In this document: in pieces, positions 4,873 to 14,665 of the stretch
Layout: the number at the start of each line of letters is the position of its first letter
Numbering within the stretch: position 1 is the stretch's first letter
Assembly (NCBI GenBank): GCA_050293845.1
Contig: JBNKNM010000135.1
Coordinates: 1-14,665 of the forward strand
Source of the DNA: Pseudobacteriovorax sp.
GTDB taxonomy: Bacteria > Bdellovibrionota_B > Oligoflexia > Oligoflexales > Oligoflexaceae
Direction: 5' to 3'
DNA: 14,665 bases
The notes under the pieces: model-generated
Told to the model about the DNA's origin: nothing
The model's database searches: none
What the model saw: only the letters and a program-made list of their open reading frames with translations
Translations under genes and position numbers: made by a program

Positions 4873-5190
4873 TAGGTTTTAATAAAAATAGTGGAATGTT
4901 CTATAAACTGACAAAGTGAAATCTTATGTTATCTTAGTGAATTTTTCTTAACTGTGTTTTTTTCAGTTTCGCATAAATCTTGCGTCAATAAATTTAACCT
5001 TCTATCTTATAAAATCTTAGTATCTCAGTATTAAGTAATGCATAACTCAATGATCTATTTAAATCAGCTAGTTACATCGATACAGTCCCTTCCCATCTTA
5101 GACTATCTTCTACTAACTATTTAAAACTCATTCTTAGTATTTACGAGTCAAGAAAAAATATGTTCTTACATGATATCTCGCTAACTCCCG

Positions 5191-5207
5191 CAGAACATTT
5201 TGTTCTG
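5191..5207. promoter_or_regulatory. Palindromic operator candidate upstream of the TIGR02147 gene
   Basis: Perfect inverted repeat CAGAACA-TTT-TGTTCTG about 60 nt before the likely start codon of an HTH protein. Confidence 0.45.
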
Positions 5208-5267
5208 TGTTCGCTTGCATTTCTTGCAAAAATCTATTTTATAGAAGCTAGACAAATGGAGAGCGAT

Positions 5268-6086
5268 ATGGAAGTGGCACATCAAGATTACCGTCAAATA
5301 CTAAAAGCAGAGCTTGATAATAGATGTGAGCAAAACCCAAGATATTCCTTACGCGCTTTTGCTAGAGACCTCGACCTATCCCCATCTCGGCTCAGTGAAA
5401 TTCTTAATTATAAACAAGGTGTTTCACGAAAAGCTGCTGAAAAAATAGCCTTAAATCTTGGTTACCGTGAAAATGAAATAGTATATTTTTGTGACCTAGT
5501 TTCGGTAAGACATGCGAGGAGCGTCCGCGAAAAACAGGACGCTCATTTACGACTTCTAAAAAAAGAAGTGGAGTCGGAAGAGAATAAAACATTCCAATTG
5601 CAGCTAGATGCTTTTCGAATTATTTCAGATTGGTACCACATAGGTATTCTTGAACTTATGAAGATAAAGGCTTTTCGCAGCGACCCTAAATGGATTTCGC
5701 GACGCCTCAGTACTTCTCCAATCCAAATAGAACTTGCTATTGACAGGCTCATTCGCGTAGGGCTTTTGAAAAAAAATGCTGCAAACGAATTGGAAGCGGT
5801 TGAAAATGACGGTTGGATTCCGGGAGGAATTCCCTCAGAAAGCATTCGTAAATTTCACAAACAACTACTTACTAAAGCATTAGAAGCTCTTTCCACGCAA
5901 CCTGTGAATCAGAGATATTTTCAAACCCATGTTCTGGCTTTGGATAGAGACGATGTACCCGAAGCTTCGAAAGAGATTGAACAATTTCAACACAGGTTTT
6001 GTGAAAGGTTTCAAAAGGGAGATAAGAAGGACAAGGTGTATTGCGTAGCAATGCAGCTGTTTAAAATCGCAGAGGAGGGACTATGA
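5268..6086 (+). CDS. TIGR02147 family protein (N-terminal HTH, C-terminal DUF4423-like domain), putative transcriptional regulator
   Basis: R..QNPRYSLRAFARDLDLSPSRLSEIL; FRIISDWYH..ILEL; SESIRKFHKQLL.KA.EAL; VYC..MQLF. Start moved from 5160 to ATG 5268 (RBS GGAG at 5258); ATG 5256 is an alternative. Confidence 0.88.
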   Translation: MEVAHQDYRQILKAELDNRCEQNPRYSLRAFARDLDLSPSRLSEILNYKQGVSRKAAEKIALNLGYRENEIVYFCDLVSVRHARSVREKQDAHLRLLKKEVESEENKTFQLQLDAFRIISDWYHIGILELMKIKAFRSDPKWISRRLSTSPIQIELAIDRLIRVGLLKKNAANELEAVENDGWIPGGIPSESIRKFHKQLLTKALEALSTQPVNQRYFQTHVLALDRDDVPEASKEIEQFQHRFCERFQKGDKKDKVYCVAMQLFKIAEEGL

Positions 6087-7771
6087 AAATCAGTTACATT
6101 TACTTATTGGCATTTTCGCTGCTATCCCAGTATGGGTTTAGCTCTATCCAACAGAAAGAAGAACTAGAGAGTGCTCCGGTTTCCGGATTATTGATAGCCT
6201 CAAGTATTGTTGGAGGGCAGGAGTATTCAGAACCATCGGCCTTAGGGCATTGGGGAGTGGGTAATGGTGGTGACTCGTTGCGTATTGGTTTTGCAGAAGC
6301 AAGAAAGCATGCTGCTGAAATTTTAACAAGGTTATCTATAACGGCTATTAACACTATAGAAGATCAGGAAGCTAAAACCTGGTTGCAGGCTAATAAACAA
6401 AAACTTGCCTCAGATATCCTAGCATCGGAACATATCTGGTATACAGAAGAAAAACCAACCTGTGCTTGGACCGTAATGCCAGAGAATAATGAACCAATTC
6501 CCACGGCTAAGCCCATACAACTATCTTATCCTGTTTGTCGCGATTCAATAAAAAGTTTTTATGAAGCGACTCAACTACTTATTCACGAATCCTTACATCA
6601 CTTTGGTGAAGGGGAAACCTTAGCTGACAAGGTAGCTATCGCTGTCGTAGATGCTTGGAAGGAAGGCCGTATTGAATGGATTCCAACAAACCTAACAAAT
6701 GCTCCTTCTTCAAGACAAAAGCACTCAGCAGTTTGGACGGGATCTAAAATGATCGTCTTTGGTGGCTACGATTCGGTAACAGGAACAGCTTTAGCTGATG
6801 GCGGCATTTTTGACCCTGAAGCCAACACATGGACCACTTTTTCTTTACCAGGGATTTCTGGACGATACTTTCATGATGCTCACTGGACAGGCGAAAGTAT
6901 GATTGTTTGGGGTGGTTACAGGAGCAATAGTAATGACTCCACAACATGGCAATACGACGGGTTTATTTGGACACCCAAAGATAATTCCATTCAATTGATC
7001 GCCAAACCAAGTTGGACTCCAGCCATATCAACCTGGGTTTTTGATCCACGCCAAGAAAGTATCTGGACCGGCGATAAGTTAATTGTGTGGGGAGGTATTG
7101 ACGAAGCTACAGGTCAACCCCTGGGAGGTATCTATGATCCTAAAACTGACTCTTGGTCATCCATGAATAATAGTAACGAGTATGCTCCGAAAAAGATTGC
7201 CGGACATTCATTAACATGGACTGGGGAACAACTTGTAATTTGGGGAGGCTACGAAGGAGTCTCAGGAAATGATCGAGAAATTTCAAATACAGGATCAATC
7301 TATACTCCAGCAACTAATACCTGGACGCCAGTTCCCGTCACAGAAATGACCCCAACAGCAAGGGCTGGCCATCAGGCGAGTTGGACTGGCAAGGAGCTTT
7401 TGATATTTAGTGGAGGTGGTGTCAGAAGTCAAAGAGAACTAAAGAGCACGGGAGGAAGTTTCAATCTTGACAGCCTTACTTGGAATCCCATTGGCACTGA
7501 AATGGTTATAGAACGGTTGGGACATTCGGCAACTTGGAACGGACATGAGAACTTAGTTTACGGAGGAAAATCCAACCGCTTACGAACCTATTTTAGCGAA
7601 GTCTATCGCTTTGATCCGGTTAGCAAGCGCTGGGTTGGAATCAACAGTCGCTTTACACCTGCAAGTCGCTGGTACCATACAGCAATATGGACAGGAAGCA
7701 GCCTCATTATCTGGGGCGGCAATGCTGGTACTAATGCTGACCTAAACGATGGAGGTATCTACTATCCCTAA
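6083..7771 (+). CDS. Secreted protein: N-terminal GNGGD/HExxH zincin-like domain plus C-terminal 7-repeat kelch beta-propeller
   Basis: Signal peptide; G60NGGD; LLIH168ESLHHFGE; seven R..H...W(T/N)G....(W/F/Y)GG repeats; ATGA overlap with the upstream gene. Confidence 0.85.
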   Translation: MKISYIYLLAFSLLSQYGFSSIQQKEELESAPVSGLLIASSIVGGQEYSEPSALGHWGVGNGGDSLRIGFAEARKHAAEILTRLSITAINTIEDQEAKTWLQANKQKLASDILASEHIWYTEEKPTCAWTVMPENNEPIPTAKPIQLSYPVCRDSIKSFYEATQLLIHESLHHFGEGETLADKVAIAVVDAWKEGRIEWIPTNLTNAPSSRQKHSAVWTGSKMIVFGGYDSVTGTALADGGIFDPEANTWTTFSLPGISGRYFHDAHWTGESMIVWGGYRSNSNDSTTWQYDGFIWTPKDNSIQLIAKPSWTPAISTWVFDPRQESIWTGDKLIVWGGIDEATGQPLGGIYDPKTDSWSSMNNSNEYAPKKIAGHSLTWTGEQLVIWGGYEGVSGNDREISNTGSIYTPATNTWTPVPVTEMTPTARAGHQASWTGKELLIFSGGGVRSQRELKSTGGSFNLDSLTWNPIGTEMVIERLGHSATWNGHENLVYGGKSNRLRTYFSEVYRFDPVSKRWVGINSRFTPASRWYHTAIWTGSSLIIWGGNAGTNADLNDGGIYYP

Positions 7772-9517: not shown

Positions 9518-9545
9518 TTGACATATGCTATAGCTTGGTTTTAAT
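9518..9545 (+). promoter_or_regulatory. Possible sigma-70 promoter of the hydrolase gene
   Basis: TTGACA (9518-9523), 16-nt spacer, TTTAAT (9540-9545). It overlaps the ORF-track start at 9535, which favours a downstream start. Confidence 0.4.
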
Positions 9546-9585
9546 TAGAAGTTGGGATCGATTGCGTAACATAAAGGCTGCTGTT

Positions 9586-10827
9586 TTGATTGTAAAAGAA
9601 AACATAGTTACAAAAGCCCTCGGGATGGTCCCAGATCATCTAAAAATGAAGGCTGGAGAAAAGGCTTACGAGGGATTTATCGCCTTACGCCGTAAGTTGT
9701 TAGATGCGGAGGCTAAAGAAGCATTTATCGATAAAGATCATGTCATCTCCTATTGGGAAGTGGATCGTGGTAAAGATGAAACGATGCTTTTTTTACACGG
9801 ATTTGCTGATAGCAAGGATACCTTTTACGATGCGGCACAATTTCTTGTCGGTGAATACAATCTTGTTGTTCCCGACCTACCAGGATTTGGCAAAAGCTTT
9901 AAGAAAAAAAGTGAACGTTATTCTCTTGAAAATTTTGGCCGCTGGATTCTTAAATTTATTGAAGATATTGGCTTAACAGGGTTTCATTTGGTGGGAAACT
10001 CTCTCGGGGGTGCCGTAGCTATTCGTTTAGCTGCAGAAGCTCCAGAGCATGTTAAAACAGTGACATTAGTTGATCCTGCTGGTGTTTATATTCCTGAGCC
10101 CTACAATCTGCATCACGAGTTATTCGATGGGCATATCATCTTTGATATTCAAAATCGTGATGCTTTCGAGTACTTTCTGAACCGAGTATTTGTAAAGCAG
10201 CCCATCATGCCACACCCTATCCGAGATTTCATTTACAAGGAATTTTCCAGACACAACGTTTGGTATCGTAAATTACTTGCTGACCTATTCGCAGGTTTAC
10301 GTTCAGAAGACGATCCGCAGCTTATGAATATTGCCTTAAATCATTGTCTTGAGGATATCAAAAGCCCTACCCTCATCATATGGGGTGATGAAGATAGCTT
10401 TTTCCCAAAGGAAACTGCGTATCTGATGAAAAGTATAATTAGCAACTCGGAAATCCATTTTTTGATGGATGTCGGCCATGCACCTCAAATTGAAGTTCCC
10501 AGACGTTTTACTCATGTTTTAAGAAAATTTATTAAAAAACAATGCCTACTATTTGACGCTCATGAAAAACAACGCCAGCATTCCATAGGTTCCAATGTAA
10601 GTCGTGGCTTTGATGTCAAGCCACACAAGTCTGCTGCGAAAACCCCTACTGTCAGCAAAATCGAGCCGTTACCCGAACTTAAAGACAAGCAAAAGCCAGC
10701 AGATCAAAAGAATAGTTTAACAAATCAAGATTCACGTAAGAAATCAGCTAAGAAGAACGTAAAGCCCATTTCAGCGGGAAAAAAGGCAAAAGCAAAGAAA
10801 AAACCAAAATCTAGTAAGAAAAAGTGA
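9586..10827 (+). CDS. Alpha/beta-fold hydrolase (lipase/esterase-like) with Lys-rich disordered C-terminal tail
   Basis: FLHGF oxyanion motif, PDLPGFG, GNSLGG nucleophile elbow, WGDED acid, GHAP catalytic His. Likely start is TTG 9586 (AAGG RBS); the ORF is open from 9535. Confidence 0.88.
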   Translation: MIVKENIVTKALGMVPDHLKMKAGEKAYEGFIALRRKLLDAEAKEAFIDKDHVISYWEVDRGKDETMLFLHGFADSKDTFYDAAQFLVGEYNLVVPDLPGFGKSFKKKSERYSLENFGRWILKFIEDIGLTGFHLVGNSLGGAVAIRLAAEAPEHVKTVTLVDPAGVYIPEPYNLHHELFDGHIIFDIQNRDAFEYFLNRVFVKQPIMPHPIRDFIYKEFSRHNVWYRKLLADLFAGLRSEDDPQLMNIALNHCLEDIKSPTLIIWGDEDSFFPKETAYLMKSIISNSEIHFLMDVGHAPQIEVPRRFTHVLRKFIKKQCLLFDAHEKQRQHSIGSNVSRGFDVKPHKSAAKTPTVSKIEPLPELKDKQKPADQKNSLTNQDSRKKSAKKNVKPISAGKKAKAKKKPKSSKKK

Positions 10828-10852: not shown

Positions 10853-11135
10853 CTAGGTATGCAAACTGTTGGATGATTTTCTTCGGAAGCGAAATTATAC
10901 TGGCTATACAGCCAGTATATCATTTAGGGGTTGAATAGTTCTGATCTATACTCCTTGACATCCTACCTTACCTGGTCACTAACTAGCACGAATTTCTGTA
11001 GAAAGGATTATATAGTGACTCTGATAAAATTTTTGCTTTAAAAGCCTTATCATAGCAATTCTCCCTTGGTAGATTCTTCAAGTTCTTAAATAGCTATTTT
11101 TATTGCTTACAAATTGGTGTAAAAGCATTGTACAC
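10853..11135 (+). ncRNA. Candidate structured RNA (sRNA or 5' leader); family not recognised, strand uncertain
   Basis: Perfect 10-bp hairpin TATACTGGCT-ATAC-AGCCAGTATA (10896-10919), a cUUCGg-capped stem (10878-10889) and several further stems, downstream of TTGACA at 10831. Confidence 0.3.
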
Positions 11136-12939
11136 TTTACATTTGTGTCAACGTGAAATGGCACCCCTACGGGCCCTAGCCCTGAGAGTTGAGATGGAAT
11201 TACTTGGAATGCACAATATTAAAGATCTGCGGATGGGGCGTAAAAAACTCTTAGAGTTAGCATTTTTAGCCTATCAACGGTGCTTTGACTGGCATTTTGA
11301 TCATGTACAAATTCTCAATAAAACCCATTGCAAGTTGAATCAGTTGGCGGATATTGATGCCAATGACCCGCCCAGCATCATTAAAATCAGGGACCTGACA
11401 ACAGATACTTTCCATTGGCCTGCTATTACTGCCAAAATTAACGCCATAAAGCGTCGATTCCCGAACTGCAAAGTTGGAGGGTTAACTGCAAAACAGATTG
11501 CTGCTCATCACATCAATCATAAAGTAGCCATTAAGGAATTACTGGCTAAATATAGGCAATGTGGATTGGATTTTCTCTTGTCCGACGATCTTCAATTTTG
11601 CGAACACCCTGATTTCTCCTTCAGTGCTTGGATTGAAGTACATCGCTTAGCTCACCAGGTAGGTTTAAGTTCAGAGCTCTTACTAAACCTGCAAAAAGAA
11701 TCTGAACTCAATGAGTTTCTGAAGCTGCTGCCAATTATTAACCAGCTTCAGATAGAAACAAAAGGCTTTTTTATCGCAGAAATCGACTGTCAATCCCTCA
11801 ACTTTGTCATACAGGTGTTAATCTGCTCATTAGCAAGGGTGATTCTCAACGATTTGCCTGACATTGGTGTTTCTGTATCCCAGGAAAATCTACTAACGGG
11901 TCAGTTAACCATGTCTTTCGGCGCTAATGTTCTAGTTCGAGAATCCAGAGAAGACGACCATGAGGGATTATCTGTAAATGAGCTTAAAACGGCAATACGT
12001 AAATCTAAACGTAAATACTTGCCCTATGACATCAACTATCACGTTTCCCCAGCACCACCTTTGGACTCTATAGGACTTTACAAACTGCAACGTACTGGCG
12101 TATATGACCCAGAAGAACTAAGTAATTTCGTAGCAAGCTACCCTTTACCAGCTTTAGGTATTTTAACGAGTACAAAGATATCCAAAAAACTTGGATTTTC
12201 CTTAGAAAAGTTTTCATGCTTAAATTTACCAGAAACGCCATTAACTCAGGAAAAAATACCCGTTTATATCGATTTTTCCAACTTTGATAAAAGTGAGAAC
12301 ATTAACAGCGAAAAGCTTTTTAATTTCGTTGGTACCATCTCACAAGATAGGGACTGCACCCTCATTGGTTTGCATGGAATCTGGCAGCTGAGTCACAAGC
12401 TGTCTGTTCCACTATCAGCACTTTTTTCTAAATTTGCTGCTCTGGGTGTGAAAACTGTATCCAGCTCAGAGGACGAGTCTGAGGAAAATATTACGACTAG
12501 CGAGGTGATCCATATCCATCGTTCAGCTCACGAACAAGGGCTTTTCTCGATTGCTAAATTAGAAATATCAGCACCTTACAACGGTAACGATGTCCCTTTT
12601 TGGAGCCAGTATATTCAGAGATTATTAGCTTTTAATGACCTGAGCAAAGAGACAGGCATGATCAAAGGGATCATTGTTCAAGAATCACAAAGCGCCTTTA
12701 TATCTCTTTACGAATATTTAAAGGCCATATCAATCACCAATATTGTAAGTCATAATATACCTGAGGTGGTAGCTCCCATAAGAACTCTAAGTCGGGGTAT
12801 TTTACAACCTAAATTCGTCAACAAGCAATCACTGCTGGGCTTAATCCCAATTATTTTAGAATTTGGTGCTACCAGTATTGGCTTGCTTAACTCCGACGAG
12901 CTGGAAGAACTCGCCGAGGATCGGCGAAAGCTCAAATGA
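11128..12939 (+). CDS. Tandem degenerate CofH/MqnC/MqnE-like radical-SAM-fold protein lacking CxxxCxxC (start TTG 11128 or ATG 11158)
   Basis: Domain 1: AIKRRFP, KYRQCGLDFL, WIEVHRLAHQVGL, QLQIETKGF, LARVILNDLPDI, MSFGAN. Domain 2: KFAALGVKTV, IHIHRSAHEQGL, DLSKETGMI, EYLKAISITNIVSHNIP, LEFGAT. No CX3CX2C is present in the 603 aa. Confidence 0.75.
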   Translation: MYTLHLCQREMAPLRALALRVEMELLGMHNIKDLRMGRKKLLELAFLAYQRCFDWHFDHVQILNKTHCKLNQLADIDANDPPSIIKIRDLTTDTFHWPAITAKINAIKRRFPNCKVGGLTAKQIAAHHINHKVAIKELLAKYRQCGLDFLLSDDLQFCEHPDFSFSAWIEVHRLAHQVGLSSELLLNLQKESELNEFLKLLPIINQLQIETKGFFIAEIDCQSLNFVIQVLICSLARVILNDLPDIGVSVSQENLLTGQLTMSFGANVLVRESREDDHEGLSVNELKTAIRKSKRKYLPYDINYHVSPAPPLDSIGLYKLQRTGVYDPEELSNFVASYPLPALGILTSTKISKKLGFSLEKFSCLNLPETPLTQEKIPVYIDFSNFDKSENINSEKLFNFVGTISQDRDCTLIGLHGIWQLSHKLSVPLSALFSKFAALGVKTVSSSEDESEENITTSEVIHIHRSAHEQGLFSIAKLEISAPYNGNDVPFWSQYIQRLLAFNDLSKETGMIKGIIVQESQSAFISLYEYLKAISITNIVSHNIPEVVAPIRTLSRGILQPKFVNKQSLLGLIPIILEFGATSIGLLNSDELEELAEDRRKLK

Positions 12940-13645
12940 TCAACTCCTCATGTGTGTCTTCCCCTGGATATACTTCCTTCCTCAAGAATTCTCGTTCGGA
13001 CTCGAGAGCATCCTCTAGGACATCTTTCGTCCAAACTCTGTTGCCAGCATCCCAACGATAGCGTCGTCCCTTGAGGTTATCTTTCGCGGCAAAGGGAGCT
13101 CCTTGAGCAATGAGGCGGTATTCTTTCATAAATGAACGACTGATCAATTCTTGCATATAGGGTGAGATCAGTCGAAAGGTTGTAGCGCAGTCGAAGAGGG
13201 CTCTATGGGCAAAAGAATTTACGAATCCATGGTCAGCAGCCAGATAGTTTAAAGCCCTTGTCTTAAATCCATGTCCCTCCCAGTCTATATGCTTCATAGA
13301 ACACGCCCAGTGTATGCCTAAATCCACTAACTCTGTCCTTTGCACTAAAAAACTGCGGTCAAAGTCCATATTATGAGCAATAGCAACCGAAGAGCGTGTA
13401 AAAAATTCCCGGACATAATCCCAATTAATTTTTTGATTCTTTAGGAGCGAGTCGTCAAGTCCTGTTATAGATTTAATTTCAGAAGATAACGGGAAACCAG
13501 GATCTTCTAATGCACTATACATATTAGTAATGATAGGACTCTTACCGGATTCAATCATAAACTCTATGATACCAATTTCAATGATTTCATCTTTTTCTGA
13601 GTCCACTCCTGTAGTTTCCAAGTCAACAATGAGACCAATATCCAT
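12932..13645 (-). CDS. DEDDh 3'-5' exonuclease (DnaQ/DNA polymerase III epsilon-like)
   Basis: ExoI VDLETTG, ExoII AHNMDFD, ExoIII AHRALFDC; C-terminal APF..KD.LK.R.YRWD module; RBS GAGGA; 8-bp convergent overlap with the previous gene. Confidence 0.92.
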   Translation of the reverse strand: MDIGLIVDLETTGVDSEKDEIIEIGIIEFMIESGKSPIITNMYSALEDPGFPLSSEIKSITGLDDSLLKNQKINWDYVREFFTRSSVAIAHNMDFDRSFLVQRTELVDLGIHWACSMKHIDWEGHGFKTRALNYLAADHGFVNSFAHRALFDCATTFRLISPYMQELISRSFMKEYRLIAQGAPFAAKDNLKGRRYRWDAGNRVWTKDVLEDALESEREFLRKEVYPGEDTHEELII

Positions 13646-13673
13646 AATTAATCCTCTGATACAGGGCGACTAC

Positions 13674-13702
13674 TAGGCATATACGCCCTTTTGGTGTATA
13701 AT
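13674..13702 (+). promoter_or_regulatory. Probable sigma-70 promoter of the GAF-domain gene
   Basis: TAGGCA (13674-13679), 17-nt spacer, TATAAT (13697-13702); about 50 nt before ATG 13752. Confidence 0.5.
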
Positions 13703-13751
13703 AAAACTAAGATCTGCACTGCTAAAAACACATTCACAATAAAGACCGACC

Positions 13752-14665
13752 ATGAGCACAGCAAGAAAAGACCATGGCAAACTACCCTCATCTAGTCAAC
13801 TTGAGAAGTTAATTTTCGAGGAGTTTAATGACCTAGCTAGCAATTTGACCACCAACCGCTTCCTTGGAGATTGGAAAATTAGCACCAGTCCTGAGGAGAT
13901 TGTAGTAGAGTGGAATGCTACAAGCATTTACTTACTAAGCCATAAGACCTGGTCTAACAAGCAAAAGCTTCAGGCCTATGCTCCCTATTTAAATGACCCC
14001 AGCTGCTGCATCTGTTTGGTAGGTCAAGCGGGAGAGTATGATAGGCAGAATTATGAGCCCGATGAGCGTTTGCAAGAAGTCATTCTTCCCATGAGCGCAC
14101 TTCACTTAAAACTAGCCCTCAAAAACATCTTCCATCTGCAATCAACAATAAAGGCTTCCGAATCAAAACAAGAAGTCATAGCTGAAGCCTCGCAGCACGT
14201 AAAGTATGTATTGCAAATCTCCCGAGAACTTAACGGGGTGCGCGATACCAATAAGCTACTTTCCTTAATTCTTACCAAAGCTCGTGAAGTTACCAATGCC
14301 GATGCGGGATCGATCTACGTGGTCGATCGTGGTGATGCCCTTGATGATGAAGGTGAAATCGTATTCAAAATAACTCAAAATGAAACTGTAGAACAGGACC
14401 TCGATGAGTTTCGCATTCCCATTTCGGACAGTTCCATCGTGGGAAATGCGGTGCTTCATGGCAAAAGTATTAACATAGATGACCTCTATGCCCTAGACCC
14501 AGACCCTAGCAAAAATTCCTATGGAGCCAGGCACGATCGCACCTGGGATGAAAGAATTGGGTACCAATGCCGTTCCATGCTCACGCTACCTATGTTTGAT
14601 ATAACCCATAATGTGGTGGGAGTGATTCAACTTATCAACAAAAAAAAGCCAAATGTCTCTAATTT
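13752..14665 (+). CDS. GAF-domain protein, probably a GAF/HD-GYP cyclic-di-GMP phosphodiesterase (3' end beyond the window; not in the ORF track)
   Basis: Manual translation is open from ATG 13752 to the window end: MSTARKDHG...ISRELNGVRDTNKLLSLILTKAREVTNADAGSIYVV...IPISDSSIVG...GYQCRSMLTLPM...VGVIQLINKK. The catalytic domain is not visible. Confidence 0.85.
   Translation, partial: MSTARKDHGKLPSSSQLEKLIFEEFNDLASNLTTNRFLGDWKISTSPEEIVVEWNATSIYLLSHKTWSNKQKLQAYAPYLNDPSCCICLVGQAGEYDRQNYEPDERLQEVILPMSALHLKLALKNIFHLQSTIKASESKQEVIAEASQHVKYVLQISRELNGVRDTNKLLSLILTKAREVTNADAGSIYVVDRGDALDDEGEIVFKITQNETVEQDLDEFRIPISDSSIVGNAVLHGKSINIDDLYALDPDPSKNSYGARHDRTWDERIGYQCRSMLTLPMFDITHNVVGVIQLINKKKPNVSN

Follow-up and report, generated by a model that had tools for sequence, protein, structure and literature searches.

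The forward-strand open reading frame (ORF) at positions 11128..12939 of contig JBNKNM010000135.1, a 14,665-nt stretch of Pseudobacteriovorax sp. DNA (the window), encodes a real, conserved and uncharacterised protein that is unlike any characterised enzyme in how it works. This target protein belongs by fold and descent to the CofH/MqnC/MqnE branch of the radical S-adenosylmethionine (radical-SAM) superfamily, and it fails every sequence criterion of membership in that superfamily, namely the Cys triad, the GGGAE motif and the Pfam and NCBIfam cut-offs. It is a member of a rare, unnamed, MqnE-derived family of two-barrel proteins. On sequence grounds, the ancestor of the family was probably MqnE joined to a barrel without a cluster; the cluster of the N-terminal barrel would then have been lost, leaving the C-terminal barrel as the working ligand or catalytic pocket and the N-terminal barrel as its structural partner. 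Radical-SAM enzymes are defined by their cluster and, to our knowledge, well-documented conserved descendants without one are rare.

Two barrels and no cluster site

The N-terminal barrel (residues ~35-300; 11230..12027, forward strand) is a degenerate MqnE/MqnC-like β/α barrel without the cluster loop, an assignment that rests on NCBIfam sequence matches and the whole-protein model. The C-terminal barrel (residues ~330-603; 12115..12936, forward strand) is a second, better conserved and likewise cluster-less CofH/MqnE-like barrel, recognised by hhalign, AlphaFold2 (AF2) and Foldseek. The two halves are detectably homologous to each other: BLASTP aligns them at E 0.002 with 22% identity over 143 residues, and their family profiles align in hhalign over 225 columns with a probability of 99.5% (E 6.1e-23). 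Cross-matches between opposite halves occur as well: the N half of the target protein matches the P0029 C half, and the target C half matches the N half of P0026. The AF2 model of the whole protein, built from a 41-sequence alignment, has a predicted local distance difference test score (pLDDT) of 86.9 and a predicted template modelling score (pTM) of 0.89, and contains two runs of alternating strands and helices, with eight alternating strands and helices at high pLDDT in the N-terminal barrel. Its best match in the PDB is MqnE from Pedobacter heparinus (6xig, E 4e-14), followed by HydE, ThiH, BioB and PylB. Modelled alone, the C half reaches a pLDDT of 91.4 and again finds MqnE first in Foldseek (6xig_A, E 7.8e-11, query TM-score (TMq) 0.71), ahead of HydE, BioB and PylB. 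The target protein has, in these AF2 models, the β/α barrel core fold of the radical-SAM superfamily, and the view of an earlier note, made from the sequence alone, that both halves are CofH/MqnC/MqnE-type barrels is supported by NCBIfam, by hhalign and by AF2/Foldseek of the whole model and the C half.

The gene is intact, as that note had stated: 603 codons are open from a TTG start to the stop, with neither an internal stop nor a frameshift. Residue numbers are counted here from this TTG. The real start is probably the ATG at 11194 (M23), which would give a coding sequence of 11194..12939 (forward strand) and a protein of 581 aa, so the frame is open over the length first read and the protein itself is likely shorter. 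This start is preferred because the orthologues P0003 (56% identical) and P0004/L001 (580 aa) begin at the position aligned with M23, and because the leading residues 1-32 are modelled with low confidence (pLDDT below 50 at residues 1-19 and 22-32). The landmarks that had drawn attention to this protein are all present in the translation of both halves: H-R-x-A-H-x-x-G-L as VHRLAHQVGL (171-180) and IHRSAHEQGL (463-472), L-x-x-E-T-x-G/M as LQIETKG (207-213) and LSKETGM (505-511), and the late FGA as SFGAN (263-267) and EFGAT (578-582).

A motif scan finds neither C-x3-C-x2-C nor the looser C-x2-8-C-x2-C in either half, which confirms the reported absence of the triad with relaxed spacing included. 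The target protein holds ten Cys, none of them invariant among the seven members of its clade, which speaks against substitute cluster ligands; the alignment of 41 family sequences likewise contains no invariant Cys. Canonical relatives carry ~30 extra residues, including NPTNxCxxxCKFC, between the positions of L73 and A74, and the target clade is without them. The segment running up to this deletion point, ILNKTHCKLNQL (11311..11349, forward strand), includes ILNKTHC (residues 62-68), which the earlier note had taken for what is left of an 'IN.TN.C' strand. It is at most a remnant of strand β1 and not a cluster ligand, because Cys68 is unconserved and the clade has no invariant Cys. The GGGAEIF of canonical relatives is replaced by SDDLQF (residues 152-157; 11581..11598, forward strand) in the N half, where clade relatives read GHDF or GNDF, and the C half has SSEDES (residues 446-451); alignment bears out both replacements as first described. 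TMLYGHxE of canonical relatives has become LLLNLQKE in the target clade, and the FIPLxFQP segment plus one later segment are deleted in the alignment to canonical MqnE N-domains. Both halves have thus lost the Cys triad and GGGAE, in keeping with the proposed loss of the radical-SAM catalytic motifs. The target protein was judged by alignment here; a GG[GAS][AGS]E motif scan, covering P0058-P0112 only, finds the motif in the cluster-bearing proteins and not in the cluster-less ones.

Database models recognise the protein at scores far below their cut-offs. In NCBIfam, residues 104-269 match the MqnC model PRK08445 at E 3.9e-14, with 52.3 of the 576 bits that its cut-off requires, and residues 100-269 are also matched by MqnC TIGR03699 and by the CofH and MqnE models. 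The protein scores 45.7 bits on TIGR03699 against an equivalog cut-off of 428.1, and 24.7 bits on MqnE TIGR03700 against 434.55. The C half alone finds only PRK08445, marginally (E 0.014, 14.3 bits). Pfam returns no family for the target protein at E<=0.01, Radical SAM (PF04055) remaining below its gathering threshold, and CofH_C (PF19288, cut-off 27 bits) gives no match. Five other clade members were scanned with CofH_C, of which P0006 is sub-threshold (16.8 bits) and four are without a match. All 24 wider two-domain members scanned (P0009-P0055) are matched by this model, 23 of them above 27 bits and P0018 at 26.7 bits.

The two-barrel family and its history

A HMMER scan covering 1.84 billion cluster representatives returned 108 matches at E<=1e-3, of which 55 lie at <=1e-10 and 28 at <=1e-30. 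Those ranked highest are two-domain proteins of 553-739 aa: the closest relatives of the target protein are P0003 and five full-length proteins of 553-580 aa, and ~35 further top matches have 638-739 aa. Profile searches of genome contigs gave no match with a two-sequence alignment and two loci, L001 and L002, with a seven-sequence alignment. Word-index protein searches proved too insensitive, finding the target itself and one orthologue with the whole protein as query and four proteins with the C-region of P0015; it took the HMMER scan to reveal the family. Short family matches (54-510 aa) were considered as stand-alone C-domains and rejected, since most begin mid-domain and resemble contig-end fragments. 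When the cluster-bearing P0111 was compared with plasmids by tblastn, single-domain mqnE genes alone were found, and none of 75 records covered at least 80% of the query. The target protein has the features that define the family, two homologous CofH-type barrels in one chain and the C-barrel signature given below. Its own clade comprises seven sequences, whose named relatives are exclusively Oligoflexia metagenome-assembled genomes (MAGs).

The family spans a wide range of erosion. CxxxCxxC is found near residue 64 in 10 of the 41 full-length members, or in 12 of 42 tree rows with the NCBI proteins P0111 and P0112 added; P0070, P0081 and P0092 are three more cluster-bearing two-barrel proteins. 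The N-domains of all ten cluster-bearing proteins scanned carry Pfam Radical_SAM and CofH_C, and the four tested score 518, 467, 526 and 508 bits on MqnE, above the equivalog cut-off of 434.55. Cluster-less intermediates score 184-237 bits on the same model, and three scanned members of the target clade ~25-27 bits, with 31-52 bits on MqnC. The C-barrel lacks a Cys triad in every member inspected, cluster-bearing ones included. The target clade is the most degenerate of the family, its cluster loop having been deleted outright. The cluster-less intermediates (P0009, P0010, P0011, P0013, P0014, P0016, P0025 and others) have exchanged PGGGAE for LDGR and YW for WGR, and in an alignment of 17 of their N-domains 26 of 261 columns are at least 90% conserved, with new residues around the lost triad. 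The sequences suggest that the N-barrel of these intermediates was re-purposed rather than merely decaying.

The family tree (whole-protein maximum likelihood from a quick search, 42 rows, midpoint root, with P0024 excluded as truncated) requires at least two changes of cluster state. One cluster-less clade of 24 rows (support 98) includes the target clade (seven rows, support 99), and a second cluster-less group sits within the cluster-bearing group, beside P0041. These changes can sensibly be read as losses rather than gains, because the N-domains that keep a cluster sit on short branches and differ little from canonical MqnE. The N half of the target protein most likely descends from MqnE, because relatives whose N-domain is intact score above the equivalog cut-off for MqnE (467-526 bits). 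The C-barrel, for its part, would have been dead for radical chemistry before the family radiated, because no inspected member retains the triad there. Of the sequences in the domain tree, the 17 C-domains all fall in one long-branched group (support 99), which excludes MqnC, MqnE and the single-domain proteins discussed below. The C-barrel profile scores 33-60 bits on those single-domain, cluster-less MqnC-like proteins versus 12-29 on canonical MqnC/MqnE, and its scores do not separate canonical MqnC from MqnE. The fused MqnE and MqnC pair that the earlier note had envisaged as ancestor is therefore likely as regards its MqnE half; an MqnC origin of the C half is possible, with the natural fusions and the profile scores on the single-domain MqnC-like proteins in its favour and the domain tree against it. 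Because the domain tree isolates both halves of the target protein, their origins are traced here through the continuity of the family.

Conservation is concentrated in the C-barrel. The seven clade members are 27-56% identical, with intact ORFs of 553-603 aa and 51 invariant columns; with the synteny seen in a Pseudobacteriovorax MAG, they answer the concern that orthologues might be missing or decaying. Within the clade, the C-barrel has a mean pairwise identity of 44% and 35 of 185 columns at least 90% conserved, as against 28% and 10 of 261 for the N-barrel. The family signature SSEDESEENITTSEVIHIH (S446-H464; 12463..12519, forward strand; consensus ESSxxExExDLTxSExxxxH) spans the end of strand β4′ and the next helix, and a second signature, KLEISAPYNGNDVPFW (K477-W492; 12556..12603, forward strand; consensus AKxELxAPYxGxxxPFW), covers strand β5′ and its loop. 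Twelve C-barrel columns are at least 90% conserved in 41 sequences (G414, S447, E450, E452, T456, E459, H464, E479, W492, E529, A533 and G580), seven of the 12 being Glu, His, Ser or Thr. K477, Y484, G486 and P550 are invariant in a 16-sequence alignment and in the seven-sequence clade. The conserved C-barrel residues would lie on the C-terminal face of the barrel, because in the model they are found at or just after strands 443-445, 473-480, 512-519 and 546-548. When the target gene is compared with its orthologue in L001, a Pseudobacteriovorax sp. MAG, the nonsynonymous divergence (dN) is 0.87 for the N-barrel, 1.00 for the linker and 0.47 for the C-barrel, with 0.30 for the neighbouring exonuclease gene and 0.36 for the neighbouring GAF gene. 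The target evolves faster than its surroundings, since it keeps 35% identity to the L001 orthologue versus 68% (exonuclease) and 59% (GAF) for its neighbours.

Proposed function, rival explanations and gene neighbourhood

Based on these data, we propose that an active aminofutalosine synthase, MqnE, was fused in the ancestor to a homologous CofH/MqnC/MqnE-type barrel that already lacked a [4Fe-4S]/SAM site. In the Oligoflexia lineage, the N-barrel has also lost its cluster loop outright, the GGGAE motif and further inserts, as the alignment shows. By established radical-SAM chemistry, the target protein should be incapable of cleaving SAM reductively, because the cluster site is gone from both halves. 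(β/α) barrels bind ligands at their C-terminal face, and in radical-SAM enzymes this face accommodates the substrate as well as the adenine and ribose of SAM. The C-barrel would be the working part, since near-invariant residues (Ser, Glu, His, Lys, Tyr and Trp) now occupy the strand ends and loops that form the SAM/substrate pocket in radical-SAM enzymes. Our best guess is that a small polar molecule, perhaps cationic or with a ribose or adenosine moiety, binds in this predicted pocket, where acid/base or metal-assisted reactions of a non-radical kind may be catalysed. The N-barrel, which evolves fast, would be mainly a structural partner in a pseudo-dimer. The C-barrel is read as the functional module because its signature outlasted the loss of the MqnE cluster, which happened independently two or more times; the mechanism itself is conjectural. 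A bolder and unlikely extension is that the C-barrel is a new non-radical enzyme or ligand-handling module, once acting in cis with MqnE and repurposed in Oligoflexia-type bacteria; it might, for example, first have received or processed an adenosine-bearing intermediate of the futalosine pathway. If true, this would reveal a stepwise and still-sampled route from active fusion through half-dead to doubly dead protein, with a radical-SAM fold gaining different chemistry.

Several points weigh against the proposed history and division of labour. The confidence of the AF2 models stems from a 41-sequence alignment that contains canonical MqnE domains. In NCBIfam the target N-barrel scores best on MqnC, with 52 bits compared with 25 on MqnE, and in the domain tree the N-domains of the target clade stand on a long branch outside canonical MqnE. 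The putative ligand site is placed by the conservation of its residues and by their secondary-structure position. Synonymous divergence (dS) is saturated for the target gene and both neighbours, hence the comparison of rates uses dN alone and gives no dN/dS, and the faster evolution of the target fits a partial relaxation of constraint. The gene neighbourhood, finally, is uninformative on function.

A purely non-catalytic scaffold or regulatory subunit, in which the double barrel docks onto active Mqn or other enzymes or senses a ligand, as the earlier note had suggested, is the most serious rival, and we consider it doubtful for the target protein. It would account for the loss of both radical-SAM sites and for relatives in which the C-barrel is fused to an active MqnE, as expected of an accessory domain, and natural MqnE-MqnC fusions hint at enzymes that work as an assembly. 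However, several invariant Glu, His and Lys residues stand at strand ends, a pattern that fits a catalytic or metal site better than a docking surface, and no mqn genes lie nearby. Moreover, the C-barrel signature survived two or more losses of the cluster in the fused MqnE, so the C-barrel appears independent of a working MqnE in cis. The scaffold explanation thus seems too weak, because the C-barrel is the more conserved half and carries near-invariant polar residues.

ThiC and Dph2 are precedents for non-canonical cluster ligands, and a still-active radical-SAM enzyme of that type would be consistent with the retained barrel fold and the ten Cys of the target protein. We regard it as highly improbable: no Cys is invariant among the seven clade or the 41 family members, the ~30-residue cluster loop is deleted and GGGAE is replaced. 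Nor is a decaying gene or an annotation artefact at all credible, despite the poorly conserved N-barrel, the empty Pfam search and a target that diverges faster than its syntenic neighbours (35% vs 59-68% identity). All seven clade members keep intact ORFs of 553-603 aa in the face of saturated synonymous divergence, 51 invariant columns are common to the clade, the synteny with the exonuclease and GAF genes is conserved, and the fold is modelled confidently (pLDDT 86.9 for the whole protein and 91.4 for the C half). Of the explanations considered, we therefore retain the descent from an MqnE fusion with a functional C-barrel as the probable one.

The target gene is flanked by an α/β-hydrolase gene, a convergent DEDD exonuclease gene and a GAF-domain gene, and no mqn gene is present in the 14.7-kb window, in L001 or in L002. 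The PRK09182-type DEDD 3'-5' exonuclease gene (12932-13645, reverse strand) converges on the target gene and overlaps its last 8 nt, and the GAF-domain gene follows at 13752-14663 (forward strand). L001 has the same order: the target orthologue (forward strand), a convergent 237-aa PRK09182-type 3'-5' exonuclease (11658-12371, reverse strand) and a GAF-domain gene (12476-14506, forward strand). Upstream lies the 430-aa α/β-hydrolase (9535-10827, forward strand), which has a ~90-residue extension beyond the hydrolase fold, ending in a Lys-rich tail (..KKAKAKKKPKSSKKK). A palindrome at 10896-10919, with a perfect 10-bp stem (TATACTGGCT GTAT AGCCAGTATA), falls within the 366 nt that separate the hydrolase gene from the probable ATG at 11194, and its minus strand scored as terminator-like. 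Nothing points to a riboswitch, because Rfam gives nothing in the window at gathering thresholds and only a chance-level match in the 5' region, and because the leader fold of the target gene is unremarkable (z -1.3). A link to a defence system is likewise not indicated, since PADLOC gave no match for the target protein.

Elsewhere in the window, the segment 1306-3089 (forward strand) encodes a MauG-like di-haem enzyme, which at 389 bits falls just short of the TIGR03791 cut-off of 444, followed by two small cupredoxins (amicyanin/plastocyanin-like). These genes may form a MauG/MbnH-type protein-modifying system with its own copper-protein partners; no methylamine dehydrogenase subunits are encoded in the window. 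At 5160-7771 (forward strand), a TIGR02147/DUF4423 helix-turn-helix gene overlaps by 4 nt with a 562-aa Kelch β-propeller gene, and the two are probably an operon. A TIGR02147 paralogue is found in L002 at 13688-14332, near the two-barrel family member of that locus.

Significance and comparison with known systems

Listings of the open-access literature yielded nothing relevant on MqnE fusions, radical-SAM pseudoenzymes, or MqnC/MqnE paralogues without the motif, and the available portions of three quinone-pathway papers (PMC13386864, PMC3914697 and PMC11707229) hold nothing usable on Oligoflexia or the target protein. The futalosine pathway has been discussed as an antibacterial target (PMC7666284). 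The family forms a graded natural series, from an active MqnE with a dead barrel, through a cluster-less MqnE-like domain with a dead barrel, to the strongly eroded double barrel, and this series could show what a radical-SAM barrel becomes after cluster loss. The same series could tell whether MqnE works in the futalosine pathway with a partner domain that has gone unrecognised. There are consequences for annotation too: the cluster-bearing P0111 is labelled 'aminodeoxyfutalosine synthase' in one source, a label that on cluster-bearing members overlooks a conserved 350-residue domain, and the names MqnC or MqnE are unsuitable for the cluster-less members.

Among known proteins, a set of single-domain MqnC-like proteins (P0058-P0067 and others) is likewise without CxxxCxxC and GGGAE. 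They are the best targets of the C-barrel profile, and the nearest ESM-Atlas clusters are such CofH_C-only proteins. They differ from the target in having one barrel, in being sister to MqnC (100% support) and in lacking the ESSxxExE / AKxELxAPY signature. The set comprises P0058-P0067, P0071, P0076, P0078, P0083, P0085, P0091, P0095, P0097, P0099, P0105, P0107 and P0109, of ~290-347 aa, most of which have MGISxxQALDCFxSDDLIGIGMEADAVRR as their N-terminus. Their MqnC scores of 193-278 bits fall under the cut-off of 428, and the sister position was obtained with ten of them in the domain tree. This family is apparently widespread, the nearest ESM-Atlas clusters being mostly from Acidobacteriota, and no characterisation of it was found in the open-access literature.

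The natural MqnE-MqnC fusions P0073 (731 aa) and P0094 (1121 aa) resemble the two-barrel family in having two CofH-type barrels in one chain, and their order, MqnE-like first, and size match those of the cluster-bearing members of 695-739 aa. Each of their halves keeps CxxxCxxC and GGGAE and passes the equivalog cut-offs, whereas neither half of the target protein does. P0094 has in addition ~390 extra N-terminal residues before the fusion. FbiC, a CofG-CofH fusion, also has two CofH-type barrels per chain.

MqnC (TIGR03699 / PRK08445) is the best NCBIfam match of both target halves, but with scores of 52 and 14 bits where the cut-off is 576; the target is without the radical-SAM motifs, and the C-domains group apart from MqnC. 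The closest system is MqnE (TIGR03700; 6XI9 and 6XIG, Pedobacter heparinus), the best structural match of both the whole model and the C half, whose equivalog cut-off is passed by the N-domains of family relatives. MqnE and the target share WLxxHRxAHxxGL, LQxETxGF and FGAN. The target differs from MqnE in having two barrels instead of one, in scoring 24.7 bits against 434.55, and in having shed CxxxCxxC, GGGAE, TMLYGHxE and FIPLxFQP.

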